64,000 nucleotides of DNA from Deltaproteobacteria bacterium (GTDB lineage Bacteria > Myxococcota > Kuafuiibacteriia > Kuafuiibacteriales > Kuafuiibacteriaceae): positions 992,111 to 1,056,110 of the forward strand of contig JADJPE010000005.1 of NCBI GenBank assembly GCA_016713425.1, given 5' to 3'. The translations under genes were made by a program, and so were the position numbers. Below the pieces are notes generated by a model. It was not told where the DNA came from, did no database searches, and saw only the letters and a program-made list of their open reading frames with translations. Shown here in pieces: positions 3,844 through 58,343 of the stretch. The stretch's first letter is position 1. Every line of letters starts with the position of its first letter.

Positions 3844-4532
3844 GCATCATCGCCGCCACGAAAATCATGAGCGCCATGCAAGTCATGAGCGCCATGAAAG
3901 TCCTAGGCGCCATGAGCGCTATGAGGACAATGAGCGCCCGGATCTCTGCCTGCTCAAGAGACACCGGTGCTGCACCCGCGAGCACGTCACCGACCGCGCG
4001 ATCCCGTCGCGTTCCCCTTGTTCTCTCCGCGCTCCTCATCACGTCGGCGCTCATCCCGTTCGGAGGATGTGCCGCGACACAGCGCCAGAACACGATGCTG
4101 GCCCTTCAAGAATCGATCGATGGCTACAATCATGCGTTGCGCTGGCAGAATTTTGAGGCCGCCGCCGCCTATCTTCCGAACGACCTGCGCACCACATTCT
4201 TGGCTCTTCAAACCGAGAACGCCTCCAATCTCCAGATCGAAAGCTTCACGATCATGAAGGTGGAACTCGAGTCAGAACGCTCGGCAAGAGTACAGGTACT
4301 CTTGAGCTACATGCTGTTGCCATCCGTCACGCTCCAGTCCCGCCGAGTCGTACAGCACTGGCACCGCGTTCAAGATGACTGGATTCTCGAGACCGAGGAC
4401 GACGCCATCTTCCCGCTCGAGGAGGAGTTCGGTGCCGGCTCAGTCTCACCCTCACCCTCCGGATCCTCAGCCTCCGGATCCTCGCCCTCGACATCGTTGC
4501 CCGCCACGCCCGCGCCGTCGCCGGCACCTTGA
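3840..4532 (+). CDS. Putative lipoprotein with a Ser/Pro-rich C-terminal tail
   Basis: A GTG at 3840 overlaps the upstream stop (GTGA). There is an N-terminal MSAM-type 18-nt repeat carrying multiple in-frame ATGs. A signal-peptide-like RRVPLVLSALLITSALIPFGGC has Cys in a lipobox-like position. The C-terminus is SPSPSGSSASGSSPSTSLPATPAPSPAP. Confidence 0.5.
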   Translation: MSIIAATKIMSAMQVMSAMKVLGAMSAMRTMSARISACSRDTGAAPASTSPTARSRRVPLVLSALLITSALIPFGGCAATQRQNTMLALQESIDGYNHALRWQNFEAAAAYLPNDLRTTFLALQTENASNLQIESFTIMKVELESERSARVQVLLSYMLLPSVTLQSRRVVQHWHRVQDDWILETEDDAIFPLEEEFGAGSVSPSPSGSSASGSSPSTSLPATPAPSPAP

Positions 4533-4590
4533 GCTTCGCGCGCACGCCCGCGCCGTCGCGGACACCTTGAGCTTCGCGCGCACGCCCGTT
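4505..4590. repeat. 38-bp tandem duplication (about 2.2 copies) spanning the lipoprotein stop codon
   Basis: cacgcccgcgccgtcgccggcaccttgagcttcgcgcg (4505-4542) repeats at 4543-4580 with 2 mismatches, followed by a partial third copy. Confidence 0.8.
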
Positions 4591-22000: not shown

Positions 22001-24167
22001 TTCCAAGACCCGGTCCCCCTTCCAAGGTGATGATTTGCCCCACGCCGCGGCGCGCTTCTCGTAGGCAGCGATCGAGTTGCGCAAGCACCGCTTCGCGCTC
22101 CACGAGCGCCGTCGCCTCGCCACGATCCCACCGTTCCTCGCTGCGACGGTCGCCCTGATGCGTACCGACCACGCGATGCGGCATCATCGGCCGAGAACGC
22201 CCCTTCATCGCGAAGGACGGCTGTGGTTCAGTGCGAAACAACGACGACACCTGACGCTGGGCGTCAGTGCTCAGAAAGACCTCACCCCCATCGGCTTCGT
22301 CGGCCAACCGACGCGCAGTATCGAACGCCAGCCCGGCCATTCGATAGAGTTGGCCGACACCCTCCGAACGCCGCAAGACAACGAACCCGGTGTCGACCCC
22401 CGAGCACAAGAGGGTCGTCAAATCGATGGACTTTGGAAGCCCATCGCCGAGCGTTGGGACGCGATGGTGGATTTCCAGGGCAGCCTGAGCCGCCCGCAGG
22501 AGATCGTCTTCGCGTGTCGCATCGATGCCGAAAACCAAGGTCGCTGCAGCTTCGGACAGTCGATTGACAAGGCCTCCGTGGCCCTCAGTCACTGCCGTGA
22601 CCTCAGACCAAAGTCGAGACATGAAGGGTTCGAGCTCCGTGGGCGACAACGTCTCCATCAGCTCGGCGTACCGAGCCAACCTCGTAACGACGACGCTGAC
22701 CTGGCGACGCTCGCCCAAACCCGTGGCCACGAACGACGCCCCGGCCCCAGATTCTTGGTCGCCGCTGGATGCCGCAGCGAACGATCCGGAGGCAGGATCA
22801 AAGCCCGCAACAGGTATCGAACGAAGCGCTCGACCAAATGCTTGAATCGACGGCGGGCGGCCGGCCGGGTCTTTGACCAACGCGCCATGCACCACCTCGG
22901 CCAGGCGTTCGGAGATCTCTCGCCTCAGCGATCGAATCGAAGGGGGTTCCTCGTGAAGGATCGCGTAGATCGTCGCATGGTCGACATCGCCTCGGAATGG
23001 GCGATGTCCCGTCAGCATCTCGTAAACGACGACCCCCAAGGACCAAATGTCCGTGCGCGCATCCACCACGTCGCCCCGCGCCTGCTCGGGGCTCATGTAG
23101 GCGAGCGTACCGAGCCGAGAGTTCCCAACGGTCAGCGTCACATCCGTCATCTTGGCCACGCCGAAGTCCAGGATCTTGACGACTTGTTCCCGCGTAACCA
23201 ACAGATTCGCCGGCTTGATGTCGCGGTGAATAACACCTCGCGCATGCGCGCTCATGAGCCCGCGCGCCACTTGCAAGGTTAGGTCGAGCGCCTCCGGAAT
23301 CGGAAGCTGGCCTCTCTCCAAGCGCTGTTTGAGCGTCTCGCCTTCGTAGTAGGCCATCGCAATGAACGACTGCTCGGTGCCCACTTCGTCCCGCAAGGTC
23401 TGTCCAATCTCGTAAACCGTGCAGATGTTCGGGTGCTCCAGCGCGGCGGCGGCTCTGGCCTCGATGAAGAACCGCTGCTTCGCCGCTGCATTGCCCGCGA
23501 GCTGTGGGGGCAGAAACTTGAGCGCGACGGCACGATCGAGGCGCGTATCCTGCGCCCGATAGACCACACCCATACCCCCGCTGCCCAGGGGGGCTTCAAG
23601 CCGATACTGGGCGACCATTGTGCCCGGCATCAGGGCATCGAAATCGTGCCGCTCGGCCGACCGCTCGGCGCCGCGGGCTCGACCGGAGCCCGAACCGAAG
23701 GCGGGGGCCGATGCCGAAGCTGGTGCAGAAGCCGGTGCAGAAGCTGATGCAGAAGCTGATGCAGAAGCTGGTGTAGAAGCTGATGCAGAAGCCGGTGCAG
23801 AAGCCGGTGCAGAAGCCGGTAGAGAAGCCGAACTTCCGACCCGAAAGCCTGCCGAACGTTGAGGAGGGAGCGTCGAAGAAGGTATGACCGCCGTCGATTC
23901 GAATGGGCTGGAAACTCGAAACTGTTCGTCGCGGGGTGGGTCGAAATTCCCTGAGCGCCCCTCCGTCGCCTCATGGGCAGTCAGAAGTGCCTCGACGGCG
24001 CCTCGCACGACCTCGTCGTCCCGACAAGCTTCCGTGAGAAAACCTGGTCGTTCGGGTGGAGACAACCGGAGCGCTTGCCGAAAGAGCGCCTCGATCAAGA
24101 GCCAGTTGCGCATGCCTCTTCGTCTCTCAAGAGAGCTTCCGAAGAGTATTCTCACCCCGCGAACCAC
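19092..24167 (-). CDS. Multidomain STAND protein: Ser/Thr kinase, degenerate class III cyclase-like domain, AAA/NB-ARC-like ATPase, TPR repeats
   Basis: The kinase is intact (GSGGMGVVYRA, ALKF, HRDIKPANLLV, DFGVAK, SPEQ). An (SA/PA)n linker follows. The cyclase homology region (VSVVVTRLARYAELMETL...GGLVNRLSEAAATLVFG) has both metal-binding Asp replaced. The P-loop is LEGGPGLGKSRL with Walker B LVVLCLEDWHWAD. A C-terminal run of about 600 aa is TPR. Confidence 0.85.
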   Translation of the reverse strand: MVRGVRILFGSSLERRRGMRNWLLIEALFRQALRLSPPERPGFLTEACRDDEVVRGAVEALLTAHEATEGRSGNFDPPRDEQFRVSSPFESTAVIPSSTLPPQRSAGFRVGSSASLPASAPASAPASASASTPASASASASASAPASAPASASAPAFGSGSGRARGAERSAERHDFDALMPGTMVAQYRLEAPLGSGGMGVVYRAQDTRLDRAVALKFLPPQLAGNAAAKQRFFIEARAAAALEHPNICTVYEIGQTLRDEVGTEQSFIAMAYYEGETLKQRLERGQLPIPEALDLTLQVARGLMSAHARGVIHRDIKPANLLVTREQVVKILDFGVAKMTDVTLTVGNSRLGTLAYMSPEQARGDVVDARTDIWSLGVVVYEMLTGHRPFRGDVDHATIYAILHEEPPSIRSLRREISERLAEVVHGALVKDPAGRPPSIQAFGRALRSIPVAGFDPASGSFAAASSGDQESGAGASFVATGLGERRQVSVVVTRLARYAELMETLSPTELEPFMSRLWSEVTAVTEGHGGLVNRLSEAAATLVFGIDATREDDLLRAAQAALEIHHRVPTLGDGLPKSIDLTTLLCSGVDTGFVVLRRSEGVGQLYRMAGLAFDTARRLADEADGGEVFLSTDAQRQVSSLFRTEPQPSFAMKGRSRPMMPHRVVGTHQGDRRSEERWDRGEATALVEREAVLAQLDRCLREARRGVGQIITLEGGPGLGKSRLIQEFRRRIDDHDWRLCLGRCSPSTAALAYGPFVEIVRSLLVFDQSAETPVSSASSVADDVVSRVRQIDPDLEEFIPFYLSLLAMPHEAHPIPQHVAKEHLHLAIVEAIAALMVASSRHRLVVLCLEDWHWADASSRDVLRQIGELITTSAFLAIVTYRPDGTVDLGQPEHHTGITLNALSAQGTLAVLRSALGATLFPSDLAERVHDRTGGNPFFIEEVAHKLVEEAAIEVDAGRVVLRHSLEKIELPASVHAVIRARIDRMAPVLRRVLAVASVMERDIGRGVLQEALGEDTDVMTSLDLLRKAGLLQKVRVVPEPAYRFKNLLARDVAYESLLQHQRESIHLRVGNAIETLYKDRLNQHLDELAHHFSRSAEWRRAIHYGRMAVSRAESVYRFAEAHKLVEQVQGWIDKLPEGSERRRLLTEVLLGEERLCETLGLRGRQQQIIDELMLIVDPEGAGGELDALRVEILLRQGDLHTLLRQFGSATSALTQAREIARSLGNAVGERNALRSLGLLSWHQERYDEATTYMEAALTIDRAREDVAAVIGDLSNLGNVLKGKGDLARARDCLEEALAVADAEEKDKARTDLVEKKLNALHMLGAVHRSLGDLEKAAAYFQQGVVLGGESMLPIQRSYHLTSLAHVYLLQGRVDESLRLYEDSVKMCRKTRHATGLSQSLQVFGSILLTLERYEDAIAYLREAAEVFAQLESREDEFSMWAKVADAHEALGQFAPMLEAWRSGLASARLTMDPNRQIQALEGMGRASQRSNQDVAITIGYYAEALALAAEADDAATEVRLRNTMGILEWGRGAFSEALAHYERALALFRMAGDRRHEGLIRNSLGVTLRDLGRLQEAAEQLEQAVAINRETEQGLLEGHGLAALAGVRRQQGELNVAYDLYRQSLALRRRRGDRKGEGWMAYYLARISSEIGETARGRSEISIAIDIADELGDEMLRKVCRELGDLSS

Positions 24168-33105: not shown

Positions 33106-34044
33106 TCACGCTGACCGGTTCGACCGACCTTGGTCCGTATCGCCCCAATCAAACGCTTCAACATAATAGAGCTCACGAGCGGCGTCATAATCGACGATCA
33201 ACGCTTCCTGCCCTTTGGAGAGACGCCCGCCCGGACGACATCGAACCGGAACCAGGAGCTCATGGCCACCCGTTCCCACGCGCGCCTCTCCAAAGACGTC
33301 ATCGACGTAGCCGGTGATGATCGTGCATGTCGTTCCGACGATATCGGTTCGACGCGGTGCCGTTTGCGTCAAAAAGAGTGGGCCGAGCGGCCGCGAGAGC
33401 ATCCCCGCGACCGGCAGCGACGCGACAAACGAAGCACCGAGCACGAGGATCCCGAAGCCCCAATGAGTGAAGGGCGATCCGATCGACGTGAGAAAGAGCG
33501 CGCCCAGATACGAGAAGGCCCAACTCACCAAGATCGAGAAACTAAGCACGACCGTAACCGGCGCACGACGAAGGCCAAGTGATGAAACAAGCCCCATGAG
33601 CGAAAGACCGTCGGCTGCAGTGCCCAAGCTCGATGGCCCCGCACTCACCGTCCCCATCGTACTCATCGCAGCCATCGCCGACGGAGAGACGCTCGCCACC
33701 GCGACCGCCGATGCCGCACCCTCCGCCAAGCCTTCGGTACCGCCCTCTGCCAGTCCTTCCGCGGCACCCTCCGCCAATCCTTCCGCGGCACCCTCCGCCA
33801 ATCCTTCCGCGGCACCCTCTGCTAGTCCTTCCGCGGCACCCTCTGCAGCGCCCTCGCCAAGACCTTCGAGTTGGCTTGTCGGGTCGAGGAGTGCCACATC
33901 GAGTGCGCCGACGATCACAAAGCCCCAGTAAAGCACCACGATGATGAGCGCCCCACTGAACACGATGGTGGGAAAAGAGAGTGCCAAGGTGAGGAATTCG
34001 TTCACGAAAGGACCTCGATGCGACAGCGCGAAAGCCGAGGACAT
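33106..34044 (-). CDS. YqiJ/NfeD-like inner-membrane protein (flotillin partner) with an (AEGAAEGL)n repeat linker
   Basis: The N-terminal TM pair LTLALSFPTIVFSGALIIVVLYWGFVIVGALDVALLD resembles E. coli YqiJ. Further TM helices follow. The C-terminal OB-fold-like GTTCTIITGYVDDVFGEARVGTGGHELLVPVRCRPGGRLSKGQEALIVDY resembles NfeD. It sits 38 nt upstream of the flotillin gene. Confidence 0.7.
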   Translation of the reverse strand: MSSAFALSHRGPFVNEFLTLALSFPTIVFSGALIIVVLYWGFVIVGALDVALLDPTSQLEGLGEGAAEGAAEGLAEGAAEGLAEGAAEGLAEGAAEGLAEGGTEGLAEGAASAVAVASVSPSAMAAMSTMGTVSAGPSSLGTAADGLSLMGLVSSLGLRRAPVTVVLSFSILVSWAFSYLGALFLTSIGSPFTHWGFGILVLGASFVASLPVAGMLSRPLGPLFLTQTAPRRTDIVGTTCTIITGYVDDVFGEARVGTGGHELLVPVRCRPGGRLSKGQEALIVDYDAARELYYVEAFDWGDTDQGRSNRSA

Positions 34045-34343
34045 TCGTGACTTGCGAGCGACACGCGATCAGGTAGAAGCACCTCGGCTTCGATGTCCAG
34101 CCCCCGGATCGAAAACGCAGACGGGTTGCTGTCGACCGGTCCGTCGACGAATGGACAGGTACTCGATGCGCCTAAAAGCCTACCGCGGCGCATCCTCAAC
34201 GGCGCATCGGTCCGAAACCCGAGCCCGAAGCGCACGCCCGCAAGACTCGACGCTCGATAGGCTTCCGCATACGGCCCGCATCCTCTAGAGTCCGGCCTTA
34301 GCGATAACGCCGTTGCAGAAGGCGCAACCGCGGAGCAAACCGG

Positions 34344-34970
34344 ATGAAACGACACTCGCCTTCCGCCGAGCGCAACAAGGGTCCGATTGGAGACGTCCTC
34401 GGCCACGTTCTATCGGCCTCGGGCCGAGCGCTTGAAGTCGCAAGCGGCTCTGGCCAACACGTGGTCGAGCTCGCGCGACGATTTCCGAGCTGGTCGTGGC
34501 AGCCGACCGATCCCGACCCGGACGCGATCGCAAGCATTGAAGCCTATCGGACAGAGAGCGAGCACCTCAATATACGCCCCGCCCTCCGACTCGACGTGTG
34601 CGTCGAGCCTTGGCCTGTTGACGCGGTCGATCTCGTCCTCGCCATCAACATGATTCACATCGCTCCGTTTGAAGCGGCCGTCGCGCTCTTTGGTGGCGCA
34701 GCACGGAGACTCCCGCCGAAGGAAGGACTCCTTGTCACGTACGGCCCATACTCTGAGAACGGCGTGCTCGAGCCGGAGAGCAATCGCGCATTCGATCGCT
34801 CGCTTCGCGACCGCAATCCCGCGTGGGGAATTCGTGATCTCACGGAGCTCGATCGCCTGGCGACGACATCAGGACTCGAGCGAACTGAAACCTTCGAGAT
34901 GCCCGCGAATAATCGTCTCTTGGTGTTTCGATGCGTTGGGGCTGCGTCATCCGTAACCCAAGCCACTTAG
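34344..34970 (+). CDS. DUF938 family protein (SAM-dependent methyltransferase-like fold)
   Basis: Motifs: ERNKGPI..VL, LEVASGSGQHVVELARRFP..WQPTDPD, NMIHIAP, YGPY...G..EPESNRAFDRSLRDRNPAWGIRD, MPANNRLLVFR. Confidence 0.75.
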   Translation: MKRHSPSAERNKGPIGDVLGHVLSASGRALEVASGSGQHVVELARRFPSWSWQPTDPDPDAIASIEAYRTESEHLNIRPALRLDVCVEPWPVDAVDLVLAINMIHIAPFEAAVALFGGAARRLPPKEGLLVTYGPYSENGVLEPESNRAFDRSLRDRNPAWGIRDLTELDRLATTSGLERTETFEMPANNRLLVFRCVGAASSVTQAT

Positions 34971-35009
34971 TCCTCCTCGGCGGAGGTCACCACGTCGGCG
35001 CGCGATCCT

Positions 35010-36536
35010 CTAGGAGGATGAACGTTGCGCGCCCTGGACTCTGGGACGCCGAATGACCGTCTTCTTGGCTTGAGTCGATCCCGACGCCGACGCCGATGTC
35101 GTCTTCGTTTTCTTCGTCGTCATGGGGCTAACGGAGCGTGTGTGCTCTGCCGGTGCGGCGGCGATCCCATCCGCCACGCGCGTGTGTGATGACGGCTTCT
35201 CTGTATCCCGAGCCTTCTCGTTCTTCTTCGACCTCTTCCGCTGGGTACGCGGCGGCAGACTGCTCGATTGCGCAGAATGGTTCGCGCAAGCCTCGCCAAG
35301 CGATGCGCCCTCAACGTCCCCAACCGCGACCGGGTCCAAGAGCGAAGGAATCTCGTCAGGCGCCACGGCCTCGTCAGGCGCCACGACCTCGTCAGCCGCC
35401 ACGACCTCGTCAGCCGCCACGACCTCGTCAGGCGCCACGACCTCGTCAGGCGCCACGACCTCGTCAGGCGCCACGACCTCGTCAGGCGCCACGACCTCGT
35501 CAGCCGCCACGACCTCGTCAGCCGCCACGACCTCGTCAGCCGCCACGACTTCGTCAGGCGCCGCGGCCTCTTCAAGACCGGCGACCACCTCGGGCGCCGG
35601 GACGCTGTCGGGTGCTGCGGCCTCAATCACGACCGCATCGACACGATCAGCGTGGGGATCCGCGTCCGCGGGCGACGGGCAAAGGAATGCGTCCGACACC
35701 TTTGTTGTGTCCGTCTCCTCGAGCGCTTCGTTTGCGGCCACCGTGCGGGTCACTCGCCCCGAACGTTTCTTCGGCCGTGTGGGGAACGCGAGGCGGGTGA
35801 AGGCTTCGTCGTAAAATATCAGGGCGGCCTCGAGCAGAAGACGGGCTTGGCGAAGAATGCGCTCAACCTCTTTCGCGCGACAGAGTAAACGCTGCCGCAA
35901 CGCCTCAGCCTCCGCGGCCGAGAGGTCGGAGCCCGCCTGCGCGGCCCTAATGGCATCTCGTTGGGCGCGAAGCTGATCGACGACCGGTTGCGCGAAAGCA
36001 TACGCGGGCTCTTCAGCGAGAAGCCGCGCAACATACCCAGTTCGCAGGCGTCGTTCGAAGTCTTCGGCGTACTCATCGAGGGCCTCGAGCCGAGCCTTGC
36101 GAAGCTGCTCGAACTTCCGGACTGGGAACAGGACCTCGGCAATCGGCGCGCGTGCGCCAAGGTGGAACGTGATCCCCGCCAGCAATCGCTCGAGCGTATC
36201 GACCCACGGAACGGCAAGACTCAGCGCATGTTCTTCGCGGGCGAACGCAAATTCGGGCAGGCCGCGCACTTCGGCGAGAAGCTCGGCGCTCTCCGCCTCG
36301 GTGCGCATCAAGATCTCGGCCGCGATGGACACGATCGCACGGGCTCGATCAGCGCCTTCGATCTCCTCCAGACGCGCATGAGCCAAGAGCGCGCGCTCGT
36401 GCGCCACACTGAGGAGCAGGATCCAGTCGTAGGCATCGAAGCAATCCATCTTCCAAGAGCGGGTTAACACGTTCAGACTCTGTGGCCATCGCCAATCGAA
36501 CGCCAAAGGCCGTGACATCCTTGACCCAAGGCGCAC
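35010..36536 (-). CDS. Hypothetical protein with an internal (DEVVAA/DEVVAP)x~14 tandem repeat and a basic K/T/S-rich C-terminus
   Basis: An alpha-helical N-domain is followed by an 18-nt coding tandem repeat at about 35350-35575 and then a Lys-rich tail. I find no known domain. Confidence 0.5.
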   Translation of the reverse strand: MRLGSRMSRPLAFDWRWPQSLNVLTRSWKMDCFDAYDWILLLSVAHERALLAHARLEEIEGADRARAIVSIAAEILMRTEAESAELLAEVRGLPEFAFAREEHALSLAVPWVDTLERLLAGITFHLGARAPIAEVLFPVRKFEQLRKARLEALDEYAEDFERRLRTGYVARLLAEEPAYAFAQPVVDQLRAQRDAIRAAQAGSDLSAAEAEALRQRLLCRAKEVERILRQARLLLEAALIFYDEAFTRLAFPTRPKKRSGRVTRTVAANEALEETDTTKVSDAFLCPSPADADPHADRVDAVVIEAAAPDSVPAPEVVAGLEEAAAPDEVVAADEVVAADEVVAADEVVAPDEVVAPDEVVAPDEVVAPDEVVAADEVVAADEVVAPDEAVAPDEIPSLLDPVAVGDVEGASLGEACANHSAQSSSLPPRTQRKRSKKNEKARDTEKPSSHTRVADGIAAAPAEHTRSVSPMTTKKTKTTSASASGSTQAKKTVIRRPRVQGAQRSSS

Positions 36537-36557
36537 CTTGCCCTCAGCTAACCAGCG

Positions 36558-37889
36558 GTGGCCACCAGCCAGTCGTTCAGATCTTTCGATCCCGATCCGT
36601 CGGCCCGTTCGTCCCCGGCCCGATTGTCCGCGGCCCGATTGTCCGCGGCCCGATTGTCCGCGGCCCGATTGTCCGCGGCCCGATTGTCCGCGGCCCGATT
36701 GTCCGCGGCCCGTTTGTCCCCGACCGCACTCTCCCTATGGGATGCCCTCAGGATCGCGGCTGTTCTCACATCGACCACCGCCACGTGGTTGTGGGTCATC
36801 GGCTGTACGGGCTGTAGCCGCGAAGAGACAGGTGAAGCCAAGCCTCAGACGAAGGGGTCAGGGACCATCACCTTTCCAGTCGACGTCGCGCCCGTAAAAA
36901 CGCAGCCCGCGGACTACCGCATCGAGGCGGTCGGAACCATCGAGGCTTTCGAAGAGGTGCAGGTCACCTCACGGGTGGGTGGCGTCGTGGAACGGGTTGC
37001 TTTTGCGGAAGGCGACAGCGTTCAGGAGGGCAACCGACTCGTGTTCATCGAGCCGAAGCGCTATCGGCTCGCGGTCGAAGCCGCGCGCGCGACGTTGGCG
37101 CGGGCGCAAGCCGAGAAGGCGAGCGCGGAGCTTGCGCTCAAGCGTCGGGTCGACGCCAACGCCAAGAGCCCGGGGCTCGTGCGGAACGAAGACATCGACC
37201 AGGCCCGCGCACGCTTCGACATTGCGAGCGCGGCGGAGGCTGAGGCCCGCTCGGCCGCGAGTCTGGCGGAGCTCAATCTCCGCGACGCATACGTCCAGGC
37301 ACCGGTGTCGGGAACGATCGACACCCGCATCGTCTCCACCGGGCAATACGTTCAGCCCGGCACGAAGCTCGCTACGATCGTCCGGCGCGAACCACTCTTG
37401 TTTCGGTTCAGGGTCTCCGAGGCCGAAGCGGAGCGTCTGTCGGTTGGTGTGCCTCTCACCTTCGCGGTGCGTGGACAATCTGGCACGTTCGATGCGCGCA
37501 TCACCCACGTGGCCGAAACCGCCGACTCGACCTCCCGCATGGTCGCGATCACCTCCGAAGTCACCGACAAGCGACGCGACGTCCTGAGACCCGGCTCGTT
37601 TGCCCAAGCCACCGTCGAGGTCGGCGGCGAGCGGGAAGTACTCGTCATCAGCGAGACCGCCGTACGCCCGACAGAGCGCGGCTTCTTGGTTTTCGTCGTC
37701 GAAGGCGAGCGTGCGCGAGCCCAAGTCGTGGAGCTGGGGCTTCGAACGGCGAACGGCATGATCGAGGTTCGGACGGGTCTTCATGTGGATGACATGATCG
37801 TCGTGCGGGGTGGCGAAGCGCTTCGCGAAGGTGCAAAGGTGCGCATCACAGAGCCAGGGACGGGCGTCCGGAAAGACGGCGCCTCTTGA
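36558..37889 (+). CDS. Efflux RND periplasmic adaptor subunit (membrane fusion protein)
   Basis: A lipoprotein-type signal LWVIGCTGC follows the repeat tract. The region YRIEAVGTIEAFEEVQVTSRVGGVV...GDSVQEGNRLVFIE carries a biotinyl/lipoyl-like motif, followed by a coiled-coil hairpin, beta-barrel and MP domains. The true start may be one of the in-frame TTG codons inside the 15-nt repeat. The stop overlaps the permease start (ATGA). Confidence 0.8.
   Translation: MATSQSFRSFDPDPSARSSPARLSAARLSAARLSAARLSAARLSAARLSAARLSPTALSLWDALRIAAVLTSTTATWLWVIGCTGCSREETGEAKPQTKGSGTITFPVDVAPVKTQPADYRIEAVGTIEAFEEVQVTSRVGGVVERVAFAEGDSVQEGNRLVFIEPKRYRLAVEAARATLARAQAEKASAELALKRRVDANAKSPGLVRNEDIDQARARFDIASAAEAEARSAASLAELNLRDAYVQAPVSGTIDTRIVSTGQYVQPGTKLATIVRREPLLFRFRVSEAEAERLSVGVPLTFAVRGQSGTFDARITHVAETADSTSRMVAITSEVTDKRRDVLRPGSFAQATVEVGGEREVLVISETAVRPTERGFLVFVVEGERARAQVVELGLRTANGMIEVRTGLHVDDMIVVRGGEALREGAKVRITEPGTGVRKDGAS
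36601..36735. repeat. 15-nt tandem repeat (cggcccgattgtccg), 6 perfect plus 2-3 variant units, in the leader/5' coding region of the RND adaptor gene
   Basis: Read directly from 36601 to 36735. In the adaptor-gene frame it encodes (ARLSA)n. The unit length is a multiple of 3. Confidence 0.9.
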
Positions 37890-40800
37890 ACTTGACCGAG
37901 GTCTCGATCCGGAAGCCGGTCTTGGCTTGGATGATCATGCTCGCCGCGATCGTCTTCGGGCTGGTCGCAGGGCGACGCATCGGCATCTCGCAGTTTCCGG
38001 ACGTCGACTTCCCGACCGTGAATGTCCGGGTAAGCTGGGAAGGCGCGGCCCCCGAAGTGATGGAGGCCGACGTCGTCGAGATCATCGAAGAGAGTCTGGT
38101 CCAGGTCGAAGGCATTCGCTCGATCACATCGAATGTTCGCCAAGGACAAGCCAACATCACGCTCGAGCTCGAGCTCTCGCGCGACGTCGATCTGGCGGTG
38201 CAGGAGGTGCAGTCGTTCATCGCTCAGGCAAATCGCTTGCTCCCGAGTGATCTCGATCCTCCGGTCGTCTCGAAGACCAACCCCGAAGATCAGCCGATCA
38301 TGTGGATCGGGGTTTCGGGCCCGTACTCCCGTCAGTTCCTGAGCGAGTTTGCGCGCTATCGCCTGAAGGAGCGGCTTCAGACAGTGCCCGGCGTCGGCGA
38401 GATCTTTCTCGGCGGATACCTGGAGCGAAACGTACGCATTTGGGTCGACGCCGACCGTCTGGAGGCACGGAAGCTCACCGTCACCGACATCGCGAGCGCG
38501 CTACGACGCGAGCACGTAGAGCTCCCCGCGGGGCGAATCGAAACCGCCGGGCGCGAGCTGACCGTGCGCGTTCTCGGGGAGGCGATCGATCTCGAGAGCC
38601 TGCGAAAACTCGTCATCCGCGAGGTGGACGGAGCCCCCACCTATCTTTCGGACGTCGCGCTGGTCGAAGACGGCTTCGAGGATGTCCGACGTCTCGGACG
38701 CATCAACGGCGAGCCGGCTCAAGGGCTGGGCGTACGAAAGCAAAGAGGCGCCAATGCGGTCGCGGTCGCGCGTGGCGTCCGGCAGGTGATTCAGGACCTC
38801 GAGAGCACCGGCCCCGAGGGGTTGCGCGTCGGCGTCAACTTCGATGGCACTCAGTTCATCGAAGAGTCGGTGCATGAGATCCAGTTCGAGCTCGTCTTGT
38901 CCGTGTTGCTCACCGCGCTCGTGTGCTGGGTGTTCCTGGGTTCACTCTCGAGCACGCTCAACGTCGTGCTTGCGATCCCGATGTCGCTTCTCGGAACGGT
39001 GGCCATCATCTATTTCCTCGGCTACACGCTCAACACCTTCACTCTCTTGGCTCTTGGTTTGGCGGTCGGCATCGTCGTCGACGATGCCATCATGGTGCTC
39101 GAGAACATCTACCGTCACTCGGAGATGGGCAAAGAGCGACGACTTGCGGCCTGGGAGGGCACGAAGGAGATCACGTTCGCAGCGCTCGCATCGACGGTCG
39201 CCATCGTCGCAATCTTCATCCCGGTCATATTCATGGACGGCGTCGTAGGGCGCTACTTCCTCCAGTTTGGGGTCGCTTTGAGTCTCGCCGTGATTCTGTC
39301 TTATCTCGAAGCGATCACGCTCGCCCCCTCTCGATGTGCACAACTTCTCGACACCTCTCATCAACGAACGACCGCCGTGGGCAGGATCGTCGACCGAGGT
39401 CTGGGTTGGCTTTCCGATCTCTACGCTCGCTGGCTGGCGATCGCCCTTCGGGCGCCAGGCGCAGTCACCTTCCTGGCTCTGATACTCTTCATCGGGTCGG
39501 TCTTCGTGCTGCGCGCGCTTCCGATGGAGTTCACACCGTCGCAAGATCAGAGTCGACTCATGATTCGAACGCAGACGGCCGTTGGTTCGAACCTCGAGGA
39601 GACGGATCGGATCTTCCGCGAAGCCGAAGCCTTCATCAATCAGCGCCCCGAAGTCGATCGCACGATGGCCATCGTCGGTGGTTTTGGGGGCGGGGACGTA
39701 AACAGCGGCACGATCTTCTTGACGATGGTCCCGCCCGAGCAGCGAATGTCACAGGCCGAGTTTGCCGCGATGGCTCGAAAGGCGCTCAACCAGATTCCTG
39801 GTCTCCGCGCGGTGGTCATAGACCTCTCCCAGCAAGGATTCACGGCAAGACGTGGCTTCCCAGTCGAGTTCTCGGTACGAGGGTCCAACTGGAACGAGCT
39901 TATCGCGGCCTCGGACATCATGCGGCAGCAGCTCGCTGCATCAGGTGTGGTGGTCGACGTCGACACCGACTATGAACTCGGTCTCCCAGAGCTTAGGATC
40001 GAGCCGGACCGAGCCCGTGCCGCCAACATGGGCATTTCGATCGAGGATGTCGCGACGACGATCAACGCGCTTATTGGTGGCGTGCGGGTCGGCAAGTACA
40101 ACACCGGGGGAAGGCGGATCGATGTTCGTCTTCGACTTCTTGCATCGCAGCGCGCCCGCCCCAGCGACATAGGGCGCCTCAAAGTCCGGGCACGCGACAA
40201 CCTCCTCGTGCCACTCTCGATCCTGACGACATTTTCCGAGCGTCCCGCGCTCCAGTCGATCACGCGGCAGGATCGAGAGCGCGCGATCTCGATCTTCGCC
40301 AACGTCGCGCCGGGTCACGCGCAGGACGAAGCGCTCCGCAAAGTCGAAGAGCTCGCGGCTGGGCTCCCGGCGGGTGTTCACGTCGTCCTCGGCGGCGCGA
40401 GCGTTGCTTTCCGAGAGTCCATGCTAAGTTTGGCGTTCGCCTTCGCGATGGGCATCTTGGTCGCCTACATGGTGCTCGCGGCTCAGTTCAACTCGTTCCT
40501 TCATCCCGTCACGGTGCTCACCATCCTTCCGCTTTCGGTGGCAGGCGCCGCTGGTGCACTTCTGCTGACCGGCGAGTCTCTCAACATGTTCAGCATGATC
40601 GGGCTCCTGCTCTTGATGGGGCTGGTGAAGAAGAACTCGATCATCCTTGTCGACTACGCCAACCAGCTTCGTGAGACCGGGCTCTCGCCTCACGACGCTG
40701 TCCTTCGGGCCGGTCCGCTCCGACTGCGCCCCATCCTGATGACCACGACCGCCACCATGTGCGCGGCGCTTCCGATCGCGCTCGGGCTCGGCCCCGGATC

Positions 40801-40960
40801 CGAGATTCGCACGCCGATGGCCTACGCGATCTTGGGCGGAATGCTGGTCTCCACGCCGCTAAGTCTTTTCGTGGTGCCCTGCTTCTATTTGCTGGCAAGC
40901 CGTCTGAAGGCATCACGCGGTCGGGCGCGTGTGATGGGTTCTCTCAACTCGGTCGACTGA
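37886..40960 (+). CDS. Efflux RND transporter permease subunit (AcrB/HAE family)
   Basis: A 1024-aa protein. The N-terminus MNLTEVSIRKPVLAWMIMLAAIVFGLVAG is AcrB-like, and the layout of 12 TM helices plus two large periplasmic loops is conserved. Confidence 0.9.
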   Translation: MNLTEVSIRKPVLAWMIMLAAIVFGLVAGRRIGISQFPDVDFPTVNVRVSWEGAAPEVMEADVVEIIEESLVQVEGIRSITSNVRQGQANITLELELSRDVDLAVQEVQSFIAQANRLLPSDLDPPVVSKTNPEDQPIMWIGVSGPYSRQFLSEFARYRLKERLQTVPGVGEIFLGGYLERNVRIWVDADRLEARKLTVTDIASALRREHVELPAGRIETAGRELTVRVLGEAIDLESLRKLVIREVDGAPTYLSDVALVEDGFEDVRRLGRINGEPAQGLGVRKQRGANAVAVARGVRQVIQDLESTGPEGLRVGVNFDGTQFIEESVHEIQFELVLSVLLTALVCWVFLGSLSSTLNVVLAIPMSLLGTVAIIYFLGYTLNTFTLLALGLAVGIVVDDAIMVLENIYRHSEMGKERRLAAWEGTKEITFAALASTVAIVAIFIPVIFMDGVVGRYFLQFGVALSLAVILSYLEAITLAPSRCAQLLDTSHQRTTAVGRIVDRGLGWLSDLYARWLAIALRAPGAVTFLALILFIGSVFVLRALPMEFTPSQDQSRLMIRTQTAVGSNLEETDRIFREAEAFINQRPEVDRTMAIVGGFGGGDVNSGTIFLTMVPPEQRMSQAEFAAMARKALNQIPGLRAVVIDLSQQGFTARRGFPVEFSVRGSNWNELIAASDIMRQQLAASGVVVDVDTDYELGLPELRIEPDRARAANMGISIEDVATTINALIGGVRVGKYNTGGRRIDVRLRLLASQRARPSDIGRLKVRARDNLLVPLSILTTFSERPALQSITRQDRERAISIFANVAPGHAQDEALRKVEELAAGLPAGVHVVLGGASVAFRESMLSLAFAFAMGILVAYMVLAAQFNSFLHPVTVLTILPLSVAGAAGALLLTGESLNMFSMIGLLLLMGLVKKNSIILVDYANQLRETGLSPHDAVLRAGPLRLRPILMTTTATMCAALPIALGLGPGSEIRTPMAYAILGGMLVSTPLSLFVVPCFYLLASRLKASRGRARVMGSLNSVD

Positions 40961-41275: not shown

Positions 41276-42730
41276 ATGAGGCAACACCAGCCAGAACGCC
41301 GACGCGAGGCGAGGTTCGGCGGCCCGTTCGCATGCGTGGCGCGGATCCTGATCGCAGCAAGCCTCGCCGTGTTCGGCCTGACCGGAGCACCCAGAGCGGC
41401 GTCTGCGTCCAAGCAAGAAACACGAGCACACGAGCGATCGAAGCGGAGCAACACGCGTCTTCGAGCTGACAAGCGGAGCGCATCGCGGCGAACCAAGGCA
41501 AAAGCGAAGTCGAAGGTAGCGCGCGCGTCGGAGCCCGTTTCGACGGTGGTCGTGACCTTGGACCGCGGGCGAAGCTTTGAGCGAAGCCTAACGGACCACG
41601 GGGTGGGCGCGAAGGATGCGGCTCAGCTCGCGCGCGTCGCTCGTCGCATTGGCGCGCGCGAATCACTTCGTCGAGGCGCGGTCTACGAAATGGAGCTCAC
41701 GGCGAACGGCCGTCTCTTGTCGTTTACCCATCACACCTATCCGGGGATCATTTATCGCGTGGTCCGACGAGGCCAGAAGCTCAAGGCGGAAACGACGCGC
41801 GTCGAACCGCGACATCGCGTCGTGCGGATCTCGGGATCGATCGGCGGGTCCTTCGTGAGCTCACTCGAGCGACTTGGCGGCGATCCAGCGCTCGCGTTCA
41901 TGATTTCTGAGCTGTTCTCTCGTGACGCCGATCTGCTCAAGAAGGCCACGCGCGGGGATCGGATCGACCTCCTCGTTGAACGCATCGAAGCGGGGCCCGA
42001 CCTGCTCGGTTACGGCCACGTACTTGCTGCACGCTATGAGCGCACAGACGGACGCACCTTGTTCGCGTTCCACCACATCACTGAGGATGGCTCCGAAGGT
42101 TATTTCGACGAACTTGGGCGCCCCCTCGCCGGACACCGCTTTCAAGTGCCGGTCGCGAAGGCCCACGTCACAAGCGTCTTTGGAAGCCGGCTGCACCCAA
42201 TTCTCCGCCGGCCGCGACCACACTGGGGCATCGATTTTGCGGCAGCAACGGGAACGCCCATCCATGCAGTCGCGGCCGGGGTCGTCGAGTACGCGCAGTG
42301 GCATCGCCAACTAGGACGCGTCGTCGTCATCCGACATGCGAACGGCGTCGAGACCAAGTACGCGCACATGTCCTATTTCGCGCCAGGGATTCGGAAGGGG
42401 AAACGGATCGGCCGTGGCACCCGAATCGGGGGCGTGGGCGCAACGGGCCTCGCCACCGGCGCTCATCTTCACCTCGAGGCGAAAATCAACGGTCGCCTCA
42501 TCGACCCGGCAACTCTGATCCTTCCTGAGCCGCCCTCGCTCTCTGATACAGAGCTCAGCATGCTGCGAGGTCGAGTTCTGGACACCTGGGAAGAGCTCGA
42601 GTCGGCGCGTTTCCAGTCCTCCGGCGGGTCGTTGATTGGTGACGGCAACACACTCGACCTCAACCTTCCGAACCTCGCGATCGTCGATCCGGAGCAGCTC
42701 CTGCTCGTAGACGATGGCGTCCGCTCCTAG
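41276..42730 (+). CDS. M23 family metallopeptidase (LytM-like peptidoglycan endopeptidase)
   Basis: An ATG at 41276 precedes the signal MRQHQPERRREARFGGPFACVARILIAASLAVFGLTGAPRAASA. The C-terminal M23 motifs are HWGIDFAAATGTPIHAVAAG..V.........G..VVIRHANGVETKYAHM and TGLATGAHLHLE. Confidence 0.8.
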   Translation: MRQHQPERRREARFGGPFACVARILIAASLAVFGLTGAPRAASASKQETRAHERSKRSNTRLRADKRSASRRTKAKAKSKVARASEPVSTVVVTLDRGRSFERSLTDHGVGAKDAAQLARVARRIGARESLRRGAVYEMELTANGRLLSFTHHTYPGIIYRVVRRGQKLKAETTRVEPRHRVVRISGSIGGSFVSSLERLGGDPALAFMISELFSRDADLLKKATRGDRIDLLVERIEAGPDLLGYGHVLAARYERTDGRTLFAFHHITEDGSEGYFDELGRPLAGHRFQVPVAKAHVTSVFGSRLHPILRRPRPHWGIDFAAATGTPIHAVAAGVVEYAQWHRQLGRVVVIRHANGVETKYAHMSYFAPGIRKGKRIGRGTRIGGVGATGLATGAHLHLEAKINGRLIDPATLILPEPPSLSDTELSMLRGRVLDTWEELESARFQSSGGSLIGDGNTLDLNLPNLAIVDPEQLLLVDDGVRS

Positions 42731-42851
42731 CCCTCCCTCGCTCCTAGCCCGCCGGCGCTCCTAGCCCACCCTCGCTCCTAGCCCGCCCTCGCTCCTTGGC
42801 CCGCTGGCGCTCCTAGCCCGCCGGCGCTCCTAGCCCACCGGCGCTCGCCAG
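42723..42851. repeat. Intergenic 17-nt tandem repeat (gctcctagcccgccggc and variants), 7 units
   Basis: The units run from 42723 to 42842 with a partial unit to 42851. Each unit contains CTAG. The first unit contains the TAG stop of the M23 peptidase gene. The array ends 2 nt before the TTG start of the Hsp70-like gene. Confidence 0.9.
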
Positions 42852-55602: not shown

Positions 55603-55900
55603 GCCCGGCCGGACGTCCTGACACAGGCGACCACCTGATGGCTCCCATCCTCGAGCAATCCACCCCGATCCACCGATCCACCGATCCACCCACCCGATCC
55701 ACCGGTTCTCTGATTCGAACGACCAACGACTGTCTGGCCGGACGCGACAGAGTCATCACCCCCGCGCACCGAACCTGACTGACGGGTCGTACGGCATGAA
55801 GTGTGCTTTGGTTCTCAGGAGCATGCGCCCGGCGATCTCGACCCATCGAACATGCGACGCGACCAAGGCCACAAGGTGGCCGAGATCAGGGCCAACAACC

Positions 55901-58105
55901 GTGCGCACACGACTCGCTTTCGGTCTGATGTTCTTGTGCCTCGGAAGCGCCTCGCTGAGCGGCTGCCAAGAGACGACCTCGAGTCAATCGCGGGAGAGCA
56001 CGGCCGCATCGAACTCGGAGACGATGACCGCCCATGCGGTCGGCTTTGTGGACGGCGTGGACGAGGATAGTGCGGGCACTGTTCTGGTCCACGGGTGGGC
56101 GTGCGTCCATCAGCAGCCCCATCCGATCGCCATCCATGTCTACGTGGGCGGCCCGGCTGGCCAGGGTGGAGAATTCGTCGGCGCCACGGTGGCAGACTCG
56201 CCGCGCGAACGAGCCGTCGGTCATGAATGCGGCGTCGAGTCGTCCAACTTCGGCTTCGTCTTCCGACTCGACCTCGACGCCAACGCCGAGCTCGCGTTCG
56301 CCGGCAAGTCGGTCTTTGTTCACGGCATCTCCGAACCATGGGGCGGCCACAACGAACTGCTGGAACATTCGGGTCGATTCTCAGTCCCAACGCCGACCAC
56401 GCCGACGACGCCGACCACGCCGACGACGCCGACCACGCCAACGACGCCGACCACGCCAACGACGCCGACCACGCCAACGACACCGACCACGCCAACGACG
56501 CCGACCACGCCAACGACGCCGACCACGCCAACGACGCCGACCACGCCAACGACGCCGACTACGCCAACGACACCGACCACGCCAACAACACCGACCACGC
56601 CGACCCGCGTGTTTTCGCTTTCGCCGGTGGGCTTCGACCCCGGTCTGCAAACGCGCCGCGCCGCGGGCCTGTTTCCAGGAGAACGCTTCTACTTCGAAGC
56701 GTGTCCAGATTCGCCGACGCAGCACTGCGCCGGCACCTTCGCCAACGGATCGGGCTTCTACACACTGCCCGGCAACCAAGCCGACGCCATGAACGATCCT
56801 CGCCGTCAGGCGTGCACGATTAACTCAGGAGAGCCATTCACGCCTGTGCTCGATGACGGACGAGATCCGTTCGCGCCCGGCGCCTGGGACGATCCATCGA
56901 TCCATAACTTCCATGTCCCCTGCCCCTTCTATTTCGCTTGGGAGTCCGACGACCAGGGCAGCCCCGTTGCGCGCGTCACCATCGACACGCGCGCGTATCA
57001 GCCGGGCCCCACGGTCAACAACTACCATGGGCTCCAGACGAACCTAGCGATTGGGTCGAGCTACGGCGGCATCGACTTCAACAACGCATCGATGACGCCA
57101 CGCGCCGTCGATGTCGAGTTCGCGGATTTCGAGTTCAAAGCCCAGATGTGCCCCGGCCGTGCGGCCTCGGACGCAAACCAGTTCGGCGTCTTTCACTACT
57201 ACGCAAGCTTCTACAACGCCGAGAACCAAGGCGGATTCACCATCGCCTTCGACTACGGGTTCTTTAGCCACCCCGGCGGCGGAACCGTCGAACCCGTCTA
57301 CATCCAGCCAGAATCCGACCTCGGCGGCCCTCAGACGGACACCTTCCGAGCGCATTTCCACGTCCACAGCCATCAACTCGGCATCATACCGGATGGCGCA
57401 GGCGTCGTGCTCGACGCCTCGCCGGACTGCAGCACGCCCATGAGCTCGATCCCTTGGCGAAGGGTCCGGGCCCCGATTGGCGCGGTGATTCGTCATCTCG
57501 TCGCCACCGGAGAGATCACGGAAGCCGTTCTCGACCGAGCGAAGTACGTGGGTGGCATCATCGCAGGACCAGAGCACTGGGGGCGGATCAAGACGACGGC
57601 CCTGGTGAGGAACCATTCTCTGTGGGCCAAGGTTGTGACCTCGCCGCACAGCGTCGGGGTCGACGGCATCCCAGAGGGGAAGTTCCGGTTGGCGGGCGAC
57701 GCGGAGCGACATGTCTACTACGCCAATGGGCAAGGCGGTCACTGTCGCTATCCGACCTTCGACGCCGCAGGCGTCGAAACCGCGCTGGACATTGAGCGCG
57801 TCTACGACGTTGCGCCCGAAACCGTTTCGGGTGCCAGCGAAGTATGCGGCGGTTCCGGCGCCGAGACAGCCATCAGTCGAACACAGGACAGCGGCCGGTA
57901 TCCCGCAGGCCTATTCCGAACCAAAGCAGAAGGCCGAAGTTGGATGTACTACTCGAACGGTGTCGACGCGTTCTGCCGCTATGTCGTGCCGGCACATGCG
58001 GGTGTTTCCAGCGCGAATGCCATCACCACCGTCTACGACACCCCACCGTTCGCGATGCGCAACGATGGCTTCTGCCCAGGGGCCGACGTCTTCTTGGCGC
58101 GTTGA
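55901..58105 (+). CDS. Large lipoprotein with a (PTT)x~24 linker and a triplicated roughly 50-aa module
   Basis: A GTG at 55901 precedes the signal RTRLAFGLMFLCLGSASLSGC with the lipobox LSGC. A 9-nt tandem repeat (PTT) runs 56389-56600. The module HVYVGGPAGQGGEFVGATV, HVYYANGQGGHCRYPTFDAAGVE, SWMYYSNGVDAFCRYVVPAHAGVS occurs three times. Confidence 0.7.
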   Translation: MRTRLAFGLMFLCLGSASLSGCQETTSSQSRESTAASNSETMTAHAVGFVDGVDEDSAGTVLVHGWACVHQQPHPIAIHVYVGGPAGQGGEFVGATVADSPRERAVGHECGVESSNFGFVFRLDLDANAELAFAGKSVFVHGISEPWGGHNELLEHSGRFSVPTPTTPTTPTTPTTPTTPTTPTTPTTPTTPTTPTTPTTPTTPTTPTTPTTPTTPTTPTTPTTPTTPTTPTTPTRVFSLSPVGFDPGLQTRRAAGLFPGERFYFEACPDSPTQHCAGTFANGSGFYTLPGNQADAMNDPRRQACTINSGEPFTPVLDDGRDPFAPGAWDDPSIHNFHVPCPFYFAWESDDQGSPVARVTIDTRAYQPGPTVNNYHGLQTNLAIGSSYGGIDFNNASMTPRAVDVEFADFEFKAQMCPGRAASDANQFGVFHYYASFYNAENQGGFTIAFDYGFFSHPGGGTVEPVYIQPESDLGGPQTDTFRAHFHVHSHQLGIIPDGAGVVLDASPDCSTPMSSIPWRRVRAPIGAVIRHLVATGEITEAVLDRAKYVGGIIAGPEHWGRIKTTALVRNHSLWAKVVTSPHSVGVDGIPEGKFRLAGDAERHVYYANGQGGHCRYPTFDAAGVETALDIERVYDVAPETVSGASEVCGGSGAETAISRTQDSGRYPAGLFRTKAEGRSWMYYSNGVDAFCRYVVPAHAGVSSANAITTVYDTPPFAMRNDGFCPGADVFLAR
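56389..56600. repeat. Coding 9-nt/18-nt tandem repeat (ccgaccacgccaacgacg) encoding (PTT)n
   Basis: Read directly. About 23-24 near-perfect 9-nt units. Confidence 0.9.
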
Positions 58106-58174
58106 CGCATTGACACCTGACACGCATTGACACCTGACACGCATTGACACCTGACGCGCATTGACACCTGACGC
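58102..58174. repeat. Intergenic 17-nt tandem repeat (gcattgacacctgacac) with 4+ units, an array of phased TGACA/TGACG boxes
   Basis: ttgac-gcattgacacctgacac x4, immediately after the lipoprotein stop (58103-58105) and about 170 nt upstream of the cytochrome c lipoprotein gene. Each unit carries two TGAC(A/G)C half-sites spaced 7 nt apart, and the unit includes a TTGACA -35-like hexamer. Confidence 0.9.
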
Positions 58175-58343
58175 GCCGGCACACCTATCCCTTCCCTCCA
58201 GCGCTGCCCTCCGACGCCCGATATCCGGAGCTCCGCTGACCCGATCTGTCTTCTGTCTCTCACGGCGGGATTGACAAGAATCGGACGCATGCGTGATGGC
58301 GAGCCCGCGATCCCTTGATGCAGAAGGGACGGGAGGAAACGTG

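Follow-up and report, generated by a model that had tools for sequence, protein, structure and literature searches.

A minisatellite of 15-bp units over the translation-start zone of an RND efflux adaptor gene in a Myxococcota genome

A tandem array of 15-nt units lies across the 5' end of a gene for an RND efflux adaptor, facing a divergently oriented gene, and its position raises the question of whether changes in its copy number control the efflux pump or whether it is a repeat that happens to have grown there. The original prediction took the former view and proposed a contingency or phase-variation locus. The analysis reported here covered the surrounding 64 kb of DNA (referred to below as the window), which comes from a 7.3-Mb contig of a metagenome-assembled genome with 62% G+C; the coordinates of the relevant features are collected in Table 1. 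The reading that best accounts for the data, to which a probability of roughly 0.55 is given, is that the array is an ordinary young minisatellite private to its lineage, and a predicted VNTR, that has come to occupy an unusual position over the adaptor's translation-start zone.

Table 1. Positions of genes, conserved blocks, repeat units, and candidate start codons at the locus, numbered along the window; Cys refers to the lipobox cysteine of the adaptor
Feature	Position	Strand	Remarks
Divergent conserved Myxococcota hypothetical gene	35010..36449	-	true start ATG 36449
Intergenic blocks conserved with the 82% ortholog	36461..36560	unstranded	
Conserved block GGGTTAACACGTTCAG	36461-36476		
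Conserved block GGCCAnCGCCAATCGA	36484-36499		
Conserved block CCTTGACCnAAnGnGCACCTTGCCCTCnGCT	36519-36549		includes TTGACC
Conserved block CGGTG	36556-36560		
GTG, alternative start in the CGGTG block	36558-36560	+	in frame in the ortholog too; Cys at residue 83
5' degenerate unit CGGCCCGTTCGTCCC	36601..36615	+	12/15 match (3 mismatches), no TTG
Array core, six perfect CGGCCCGATTGTCCG units	36616..36705	+	exact search, TRF
TTG codons in the array core	36624, 36639, 36654, 36669, 36684, 36699		Cys at residues 61, 56, 51, 46, 41, 36
3' degenerate unit CGGCCCGTTTGTCCC	36706..36720	+	13/15 match (2 mismatches), holds TTG 36714-36716
TTG in the last degenerate unit	36714		Cys at residue 31
Weak third degenerate unit CGACCGCACTCTCCC	36721..36735	+	9/15 match (by eye)
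ATGCCCTCAGG, with out-of-frame ATG	36742..36752	+	opens a 51-codon ORF ending at 36897
TTG downstream of the array	36789		Cys at residue 6; hydrophobic core gone
RND efflux periplasmic adaptor (membrane-fusion lipoprotein) CDS, from the likeliest start	36714..37889	+	
RND permease (ACR_tran, AcrB-family)	37886..40960	+	ACR_tran 2.2e-268

The array is real and has the anatomy that was first described, with six perfect units and two to three degenerate units at its flanks. An exact search of the window found the unit CGGCCCGATTGTCCG six times, perfect and contiguous, and TRF reported a period of 15 with 8.2 copies, 94% matches, and a score of 211 over 36596-36719. The degenerate units CGGCCCGTTCGTCCC and CGGCCCGTTTGTCCC are in register with the perfect core, the weaker CGACCGCACTCTCCC follows on the 3' side, and a possible remnant of a further unit is found 5' of CGGCCCGTTCGTCCC, at 36587-36600; the whole array measures 135 bp. 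Isolated near-matches to the unit are to be expected, at 5.7 per window with three or fewer mismatches; eight units in exact register are not chance. The array thus shows what defines a minisatellite, namely at least four head-to-tail copies of a unit of at least 10 bp at high identity, and its combination of a perfect core and degenerate edges is the typical appearance of a recently expanded VNTR. Translation of the adaptor frame bears out the reading (ARLSA)n, with each unit giving ARLSA, and the unit length, as a multiple of three, means that a change in copy number keeps the frame and causes no frameshift. All six frames are, however, open across the array, so that the open adaptor frame carries no coding information there.

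The gene at whose 5' end the array lies has an intact body. The ORF at 36558-37889 encodes an RND efflux periplasmic adaptor (Pfam HlyD_D23, 9.5e-21; HlyD_3, 1.3e-18), and its mature part scores strongly as coding, at +11 to +23 per 30 codons by codon log-odds. The signal peptide, MSPTALSLWDALRIAAVLTSTTATWLWVIG, is followed by the Cys of a lipobox, V-I-G-C, at 36795-36806 (Cys codon 36804-36806) that was called by pattern match only. The adaptor stop codon is overlapped by the TTG at 37886 of the permease gene (TTGA), after which comes a gene for an M23 peptidase; no regulator gene is adjacent to the array. The Pfam alignment of the permease begins at residue 4, so its start must be TTG 37886 or TTG 37892, which shows that the operon uses TTG starts lacking a Shine-Dalgarno sequence.

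The proposal that changes in copy number would alter promoter spacing for both divergent genes was not supported. The span originally given for the divergent gene, 35010-36536, is wrong, the GTG at 36536 not being its start. Its ortholog and 15 family members all start with M..(L)EAYDWI, which identifies ATG 36449 (MDCFDAYDW...) as the true start, and the array thus begins 152 bp from it. A family search showed the divergent gene to be widespread in Myxococcota, although the relatives found in that search are all at most 51% identical and thus too distant for alignment of intergenic DNA. Within the intergenic region, four blocks are conserved with the ortholog of the locus described below, and these presumably make up a candidate promoter/operator region. 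All four lie upstream of the array, on the side of the divergent gene, so that neither the spacing among them nor their distance to the divergent gene is affected by copy number; a change in the number of units would be expected to alter only the distance from the blocks to the adaptor's signal-peptide coding sequence. A promoter scan of the region detected no sigma-70-type promoter, and a sigma-54-like element considered in the GCACCTTGC block was dismissed on visual inspection, the GG-GC spacing being wrong. Judged by these candidate elements, the array is probably not a promoter spacer of the kind seen at phase-variable loci.

The age of the array is indicated by comparison with the only close ortholog of the adaptor, P0002, which shares 82% amino acid identity and is found on five contigs from five samples. 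Gene order on these contigs is the same (DUF938, hypothetical, adaptor, permease, M23, HSP70-like), and the intergenic region, at 142 bp, has no array at the orthologous site. Four of the five contigs, from different samples, were aligned over the intergenic region and are identical there. Neither a dimer of the unit nor the pattern of conserved intergenic blocks had any match in 185,579 species genomes or in JGI metagenome contigs. As the array is absent from the ortholog and its unit was seen nowhere else searched, it is best regarded as a young, private expansion. GTG 36558 is conserved in both genomes, in frame and without an intervening stop, and the stretch from it to the codon of a conserved Cys (TGT 36813, the second Cys) measures 255 nt in the window, compared with 123 nt in the ortholog; the excess of 132 nt corresponds to nine 15-nt units less 3, making the array a clean addition to a region otherwise conserved in length.

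The same comparison bears on whether the array might be a row of binding sites, operator- or iteron-like, for a regulator of the divergent pair. The palindrome CCGCGG occurs at every unit junction, and the array is placed, as such sites would be, in an intergenic region at the 5' end of a gene. An operator of this kind is nonetheless highly improbable, given that the ortholog keeps the same operon without it, that the unit was found nowhere else searched, that a regulator gene is not among the immediate neighbors, and that, with a period of 15 bp, neighboring sites would be turned to opposite sides of the helix.

Where exactly the array was inserted relative to the ancestral start depends on the alignment. 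Two global alignments of the window and the ortholog score nearly equally (17.0 and 16.75). In one, the ortholog start ATGCCCTCGGG pairs with ATGCCCTCAGG at 36742, with 10 of 11 positions matching, when only about 0.004 matches as good are expected by chance per 250-nt region. In the other, the ortholog ATG pairs with approximately 36588-36592, where it has been lost, and the frame is kept throughout; this places the array within formerly coding n-region sequence. The first alignment invites the interpretation that the 5' end of the adaptor gene is damaged, in that an indel put an ancestral ATG at 36742 out of frame, the array is debris in a decaying start region, and the signal peptide is no longer made efficiently. 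Beyond the quality of the match itself, this would account for the 51-codon ORF that this ATG now opens and for the lack of any in-frame ATG, and a second ATG, at 36737, is likewise out of frame. Decay is nevertheless improbable in view of an adaptor body that is intact, at 82% identity with the ortholog and with a strong coding score, and of a permease gene that is intact as well and coupled to the adaptor start-to-stop. The alternative alignment does without a frameshift and is equally good, and an in-frame TTG yields a signal peptide of normal length.

An assembly or sequencing error, either in the array or in the frame relation near 36742, is conceivable in a metagenome-assembled source, and tandem arrays are hard to size. 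It is rendered very unlikely by an independent short-read contig from Logan, SRR11674035, which is 100% identical to the window over 33790-35398 (1,609 bp) and ends inside neighboring arrays on both sides. Such breaks fit real repeats longer than the assembly k-mer, and together with the sequence identity they support the view that the assembly is accurate and that the neighboring arrays are real, the 15-bp array itself lying beyond the part covered. The DUF938 neighbor was the only protein that retrieved a short-read contig of the same strain; exact-protein look-ups of the source adaptor protein (P0001), of the permease with two alternative starts, and of a guessed edge-truncated adaptor gave no match.

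The neighboring arrays are themselves informative, as the locus lies in a stretch of DNA exceptionally rich in them. The window contains eight arrays with a TRF score above 100. By a SATFIND-like criterion, an exact decamer occurring at least four times at constant spacing, six of the window arrays are counted, corresponding to about 94 per Mb. In a survey of 119 bacterial reference genomes the medians are 0-3 arrays per Mb, the richest bacteria listed, such as M. tuberculosis and X. campestris, have about 4-5 per Mb, and the richest prokaryote listed, Methanosarcina vacuolata, has 89 per Mb (PMC6749651). The divergent gene holds an 18-bp array of its own, encoding (DEVVAP/A)n, at 35352-35574, and two further arrays lie in spacers upstream of genes, at 58105-58176 and at 42722-42846. 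The latter is about 50 nt before the HSP70-like gene and is absent from the ortholog. At both homologous in-gene positions the ortholog contigs do carry arrays, whose units are unrelated to those of the window and whose copy numbers differ (24 bp x 9.7 against x 5.3, and 18 bp x 6.7 against x 12.4). This high density and the turnover seen in the ortholog suggest that the birth of arrays is a property of the genome of this lineage and not of the efflux operon.

Because the array grew where it did, it does bear on the choice of start codon, as the original prediction had argued. From the upstream stop to the lipobox the adaptor frame contains no ATG, and a search 3' of the array found no canonical in-frame start that keeps the hydrophobic core of the signal peptide, so that ribosomes making a functional signal peptide must initiate no further downstream than the last unit. 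The core is retained only from these canonical in-frame starts: seven TTG codons of the array and GTG 36558, which is in frame with the adaptor as stated originally; every such start, save this GTG, lies in the array. An in-frame TTG had originally been described in each unit, and one is indeed present in all six perfect units and in CGGCCCGTTTGTCCC (Table 1), although not in the first degenerate unit.

Signal-peptide length discriminates among these candidates. A lipobox is recognizable in 104 of the 120 closest homologs, with the Cys at residue 6-32 (median 23), and in the ortholog it is at residue 31. Among the starts that keep the core, only TTG 36714 places the Cys within the family range, the others giving positions from 36 to 83. 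The database protein for this gene, P0001 (391 aa), also begins at TTG 36714, leaving the six perfect units outside the CDS, but that annotation was probably guided by homology and is then not independent of the length argument. TTG 36714 may tentatively be taken as the single most likely start, though at somewhat less than even odds. GTG 36558 is possible and a distinctly weaker candidate, one of the upstream TTG codons in the array is a weaker one still, and the absence of any proper start, or a damaged gene, is less likely than either. Initiation at 36714 would leave the n-region with a net charge of 0, the family mode being +2, and two stronger, out-of-frame ATG codons follow within 30 nt. 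Genes of this genome are mostly without a recognizable Shine-Dalgarno sequence, which makes a test for one uninformative for any of the candidates.

If translation began further upstream, the array would itself be translated, from GTG 36558 or an upstream TTG, as an Arg-rich (ARLSA)n extension of the n-region that signal peptidase II would remove. The extension would be cytoplasmic and would obey the positive-inside rule, and each step of slippage would add or remove five residues and a charge of +1. This account is compatible with a VNTR, departs from the best explanation only in what is translated, and is a possible alternative, albeit not the favored one. Several observations speak for it. 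No stop interrupts the frame after the conserved GTG, which is in frame in the ortholog too; the region minus the array has the length of the ortholog to within one codon; the in-frame alignment pairs P-S-A-R-S-S with P-S-G..R-S-V of the ortholog; and with upstream starts the charge of the n-region rises from 0 in the direction of +2, the family mode. The period, moreover, is a multiple of three, as it is in all four window arrays within ORFs (12, 24, 18, and 18) and in none of the three outside them (17, 17, and 38), which hints, with a likelihood ratio of about 3, that the frame matters at the 15-bp array as well. Set against these, a Cys at residue 36-83 compares poorly with residue 6-32 in 104 homologs, and the openness of the frame is uninformative where six frames are open. 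The array has no coding signal in the adaptor frame (a codon log-odds of -0.16 per unit, or about 0), its CGA codon is disfavored, and the upstream UUG codons are buried in a predicted hairpin of the array. This hairpin, from the minimum-free-energy RNA structure, is formed by pairing among the six perfect units, and UUG 36714 is not part of it.

Under the favored interpretation of a private minisatellite, the array is most likely a product of slipped-strand mispairing, in a genome where arrays form at very high density, and it came to sit between the promoter/operator-like conserved blocks and the hydrophobic core of the signal peptide. The six perfect units would be transcribed as an untranslated leader, translation would begin at TTG 36714 of the last, degenerate unit, and the resulting 30-residue signal peptide would be removed by signal peptidase II. 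With initiation upstream of that codon, whether at GTG 36558 or at one of the array TTG codons, the only consequence would be additional Arg-rich ARLSA pentapeptides in the cleaved n-region, so that the mature adaptor would be the same at any copy number, whichever start is used. Slippage in steps of 15 nt could at most tune the length of the leader, or the length and charge of the n-region, and with a unit of this size it cannot switch the gene off by frameshift. The array would on this account be nearly neutral.

A contingency locus, in which the copy number of the transcribed array tunes or switches pump expression through the leader or through the choice among TTG codons, was the original proposal, and such a function is unsupported. 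Six perfect units do confer a high potential for slippage, the array fills the start zone and supplies start codons, and a repeat in a 5' UTR is known to exert graded control elsewhere (PMC12721329). It is unlikely all the same, as the in-frame unit provides no ON/OFF switch, the ortholog runs the same operon without an array, and arrays occur throughout the genome, even in genes for which switching has no evident use. Predicted structure does not speak for it either. The predicted folds of the leader RNA and of the array as RNA and as DNA are no more stable than shuffled sequence (z = -0.37, -0.50, and -0.73 against dinucleotide shuffles), the self-pairing of the array, at -51 kcal/mol, has z = -0.5, and a search of Rfam returned nothing in the array and a single sub-threshold chance match outside it. 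One version of this proposal deserves mention, although it is doubtful: a 'start-codon ladder', in which the n-region's length and positive charge, or else the leader's length, would depend on copy number together with the choice among TTG codons, so that adaptor export and the number of pumps would be tuned. If true, this would amount to graded contingency control without frameshifts in a free-living, array-rich myxobacterium.

Repeats in or near a signal-peptide or start region are known from phase-variable genes of pathogens. The opa genes of Neisseria have CTCTT repeats in the signal-peptide coding region, and lic1 of H. influenzae has CAAT repeats with several alternative ATG codons. The array resembles these in its location and in having alternative starts tied to the repeat tract. 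Their units, however, are not multiples of three and act as ON/OFF switches by frameshift, the hallmark of a phase-variable SSR switch, which a 15-nt unit cannot do. To our knowledge, graded repeat control without a frameshift is documented in only a few host-adapted pathogens, and for this reason the array would matter more if its copy number were variable and tuned the output of the efflux pump. The documented case closest to such tuning is that of hmw1A and hmw2A of Haemophilus influenzae, where a 7-bp repeat, (ATCTTTC)n, in the 5' UTR grades expression by copy number with no frameshift; these repeats make up one side of a long hairpin, opposite a separate G-rich partner, and the hairpin is cleaved by RNase III (PMC12721329). 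There, as here, a tandem array lies between a promoter (a candidate one here) and the start of a gene for a cell-envelope protein. The present array differs in having a predicted fold no better than that of shuffled sequence, a 15-nt unit, and a soil-type host with 62% G+C, and it appears to resemble the hmw repeat only in position. The literature was also searched for tandem repeats in myxobacteria or in signal-peptide n-regions, and no specific report emerged.

Among known kinds of repeat, the array comes closest to the bacterial VNTR or minisatellite, of which, judged by its sequence, it is a predicted member. VNTR loci are used for MLVA typing, examples being the in-frame 12-bp vrrA repeat of Bacillus anthracis and, in Mycobacterium tuberculosis, the MIRU-VNTRs; some of the latter are located between genes of an operon, where they overlap start or stop codons. 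Like VNTRs, the array is private to its lineage, has a unit that is a multiple of three, lies at a gene boundary, and presumably originated by slippage; with them and with the 'satellites' of a broad genome survey it shares short head-to-tail units, a perfect core, and degenerate edges (PMC6749651). Polymorphism is the defining feature of a VNTR, whereas this array is known from the sequence of one genome, and it differs further in carrying the gene's only usable in-frame start codons. As it stands, the array matters little: it is a tidy case, from an uncultured member of the Myxococcota, of a private minisatellite that has grown over a start zone and probably supplies the start codon. The more notable lead is genome-wide. 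The bacteria of the survey fall far below the approximately 94 arrays per Mb of this window, and if the window is representative, its density is matched there only by Methanosarcina (PMC6749651); such a density, should it extend across the genome, prompts one to ask which factors promote slippage on this scale or allow it to persist.

Tandem Repeats Finder (TRF) identified eight tandem arrays with scores above 100 in the 64-kb window. Those within open reading frames have periods of 12, 24, 18, and 18, and those outside have periods of 17, 17, and 38.

Tandem arrays and out-of-frame ATGs in the window
Feature	Position	Strand	Detail	Source
Tandem array	4505-4588			TRF
Tandem array	23707-23831			TRF
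Tandem array	33716-33843	(-)	24-bp x 5.3	TRF
Tandem array	35352-35574	(-)	18-bp x 12.4	TRF
Tandem array	36596-36719		adaptor gene 5' end	TRF
Tandem array	42722-42846		17-bp x 7.3	TRF
Tandem array	56390-56601		18-bp x 11.8	TRF
Tandem array	58105-58176		17-bp x 4.2	TRF
Out-of-frame ATG	36737		opens 26 codons	
Out-of-frame ATG	36742		opens 51 codons	

Two of the arrays within genes have counterparts in the ortholog, a syntenic locus whose adaptor shows 82% amino acid identity. The array in the divergent hypothetical gene encodes (DEVVAP/A)n, and the matching site (contig L003:2969-3088) carries an 18-bp x 6.7 array of unrelated unit that encodes (SASDDA/SASEDV)n; this segment of the gene is a fast-evolving acidic linker. 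Likewise, ORF 33106-34044 holds the 24-bp array, and its orthologous gene has a 24-bp x 9.7 array (L003:493-725) with a different unit. A short-read contig of public run SRR11674035 (Logan; L006) is 100% identical to 33790-35398, with both of its ends breaking within tandem arrays, and this run holds the window's strain.

Other arrays lie beside genes. The 17-bp x 7.3 array (unit CGCTCCTAGCCCGCCCG) begins in the final codons of an M23 peptidase gene and has its 3' end ~50 nt upstream of an HSP70-like gene; the ortholog's 124-bp spacer at the matching site (contig L001, 7218-7342) is without an array. ORF 55622-58105 contains the 18-bp x 11.8 array, and at its stop codon the 17-bp x 4.2 array begins, with a unit, ACGCATTGACACCTGAC, that includes the -35-like hexamer TTGACA.

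Between the divergent genes, intergenic blocks common to the window and the ortholog (36461-36560) are candidate promoter/operator elements for the pair. Among them are a GTTAAC-centred near-palindrome (36457-36474) and a TTGACC-containing block flanked by an 11-nt inverted repeat (arms 36482-92 and 36555-65). Shortly downstream of the likely TTG start of the adaptor, two out-of-frame ATGs open within 36737-36897, the second in a context that repeats the ortholog's start context ATGCCCTCGGG (10/11 match). The permease start is limited to TTG 37886 or 37892 because of the Pfam alignment, and the former, in TTGA at 37886-37889, overlaps the adaptor stop, whereas 42 nt separate the two genes in the ortholog.

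Six of the window's arrays pass a SATFIND-like criterion (an exact decamer at least four times at constant spacing), which corresponds to ~94 per Mb over 64 kb. With bacterial medians of 0-3 per Mb in a published survey (PMC6749651), the density of short-unit tandem arrays in the window is exceptional.
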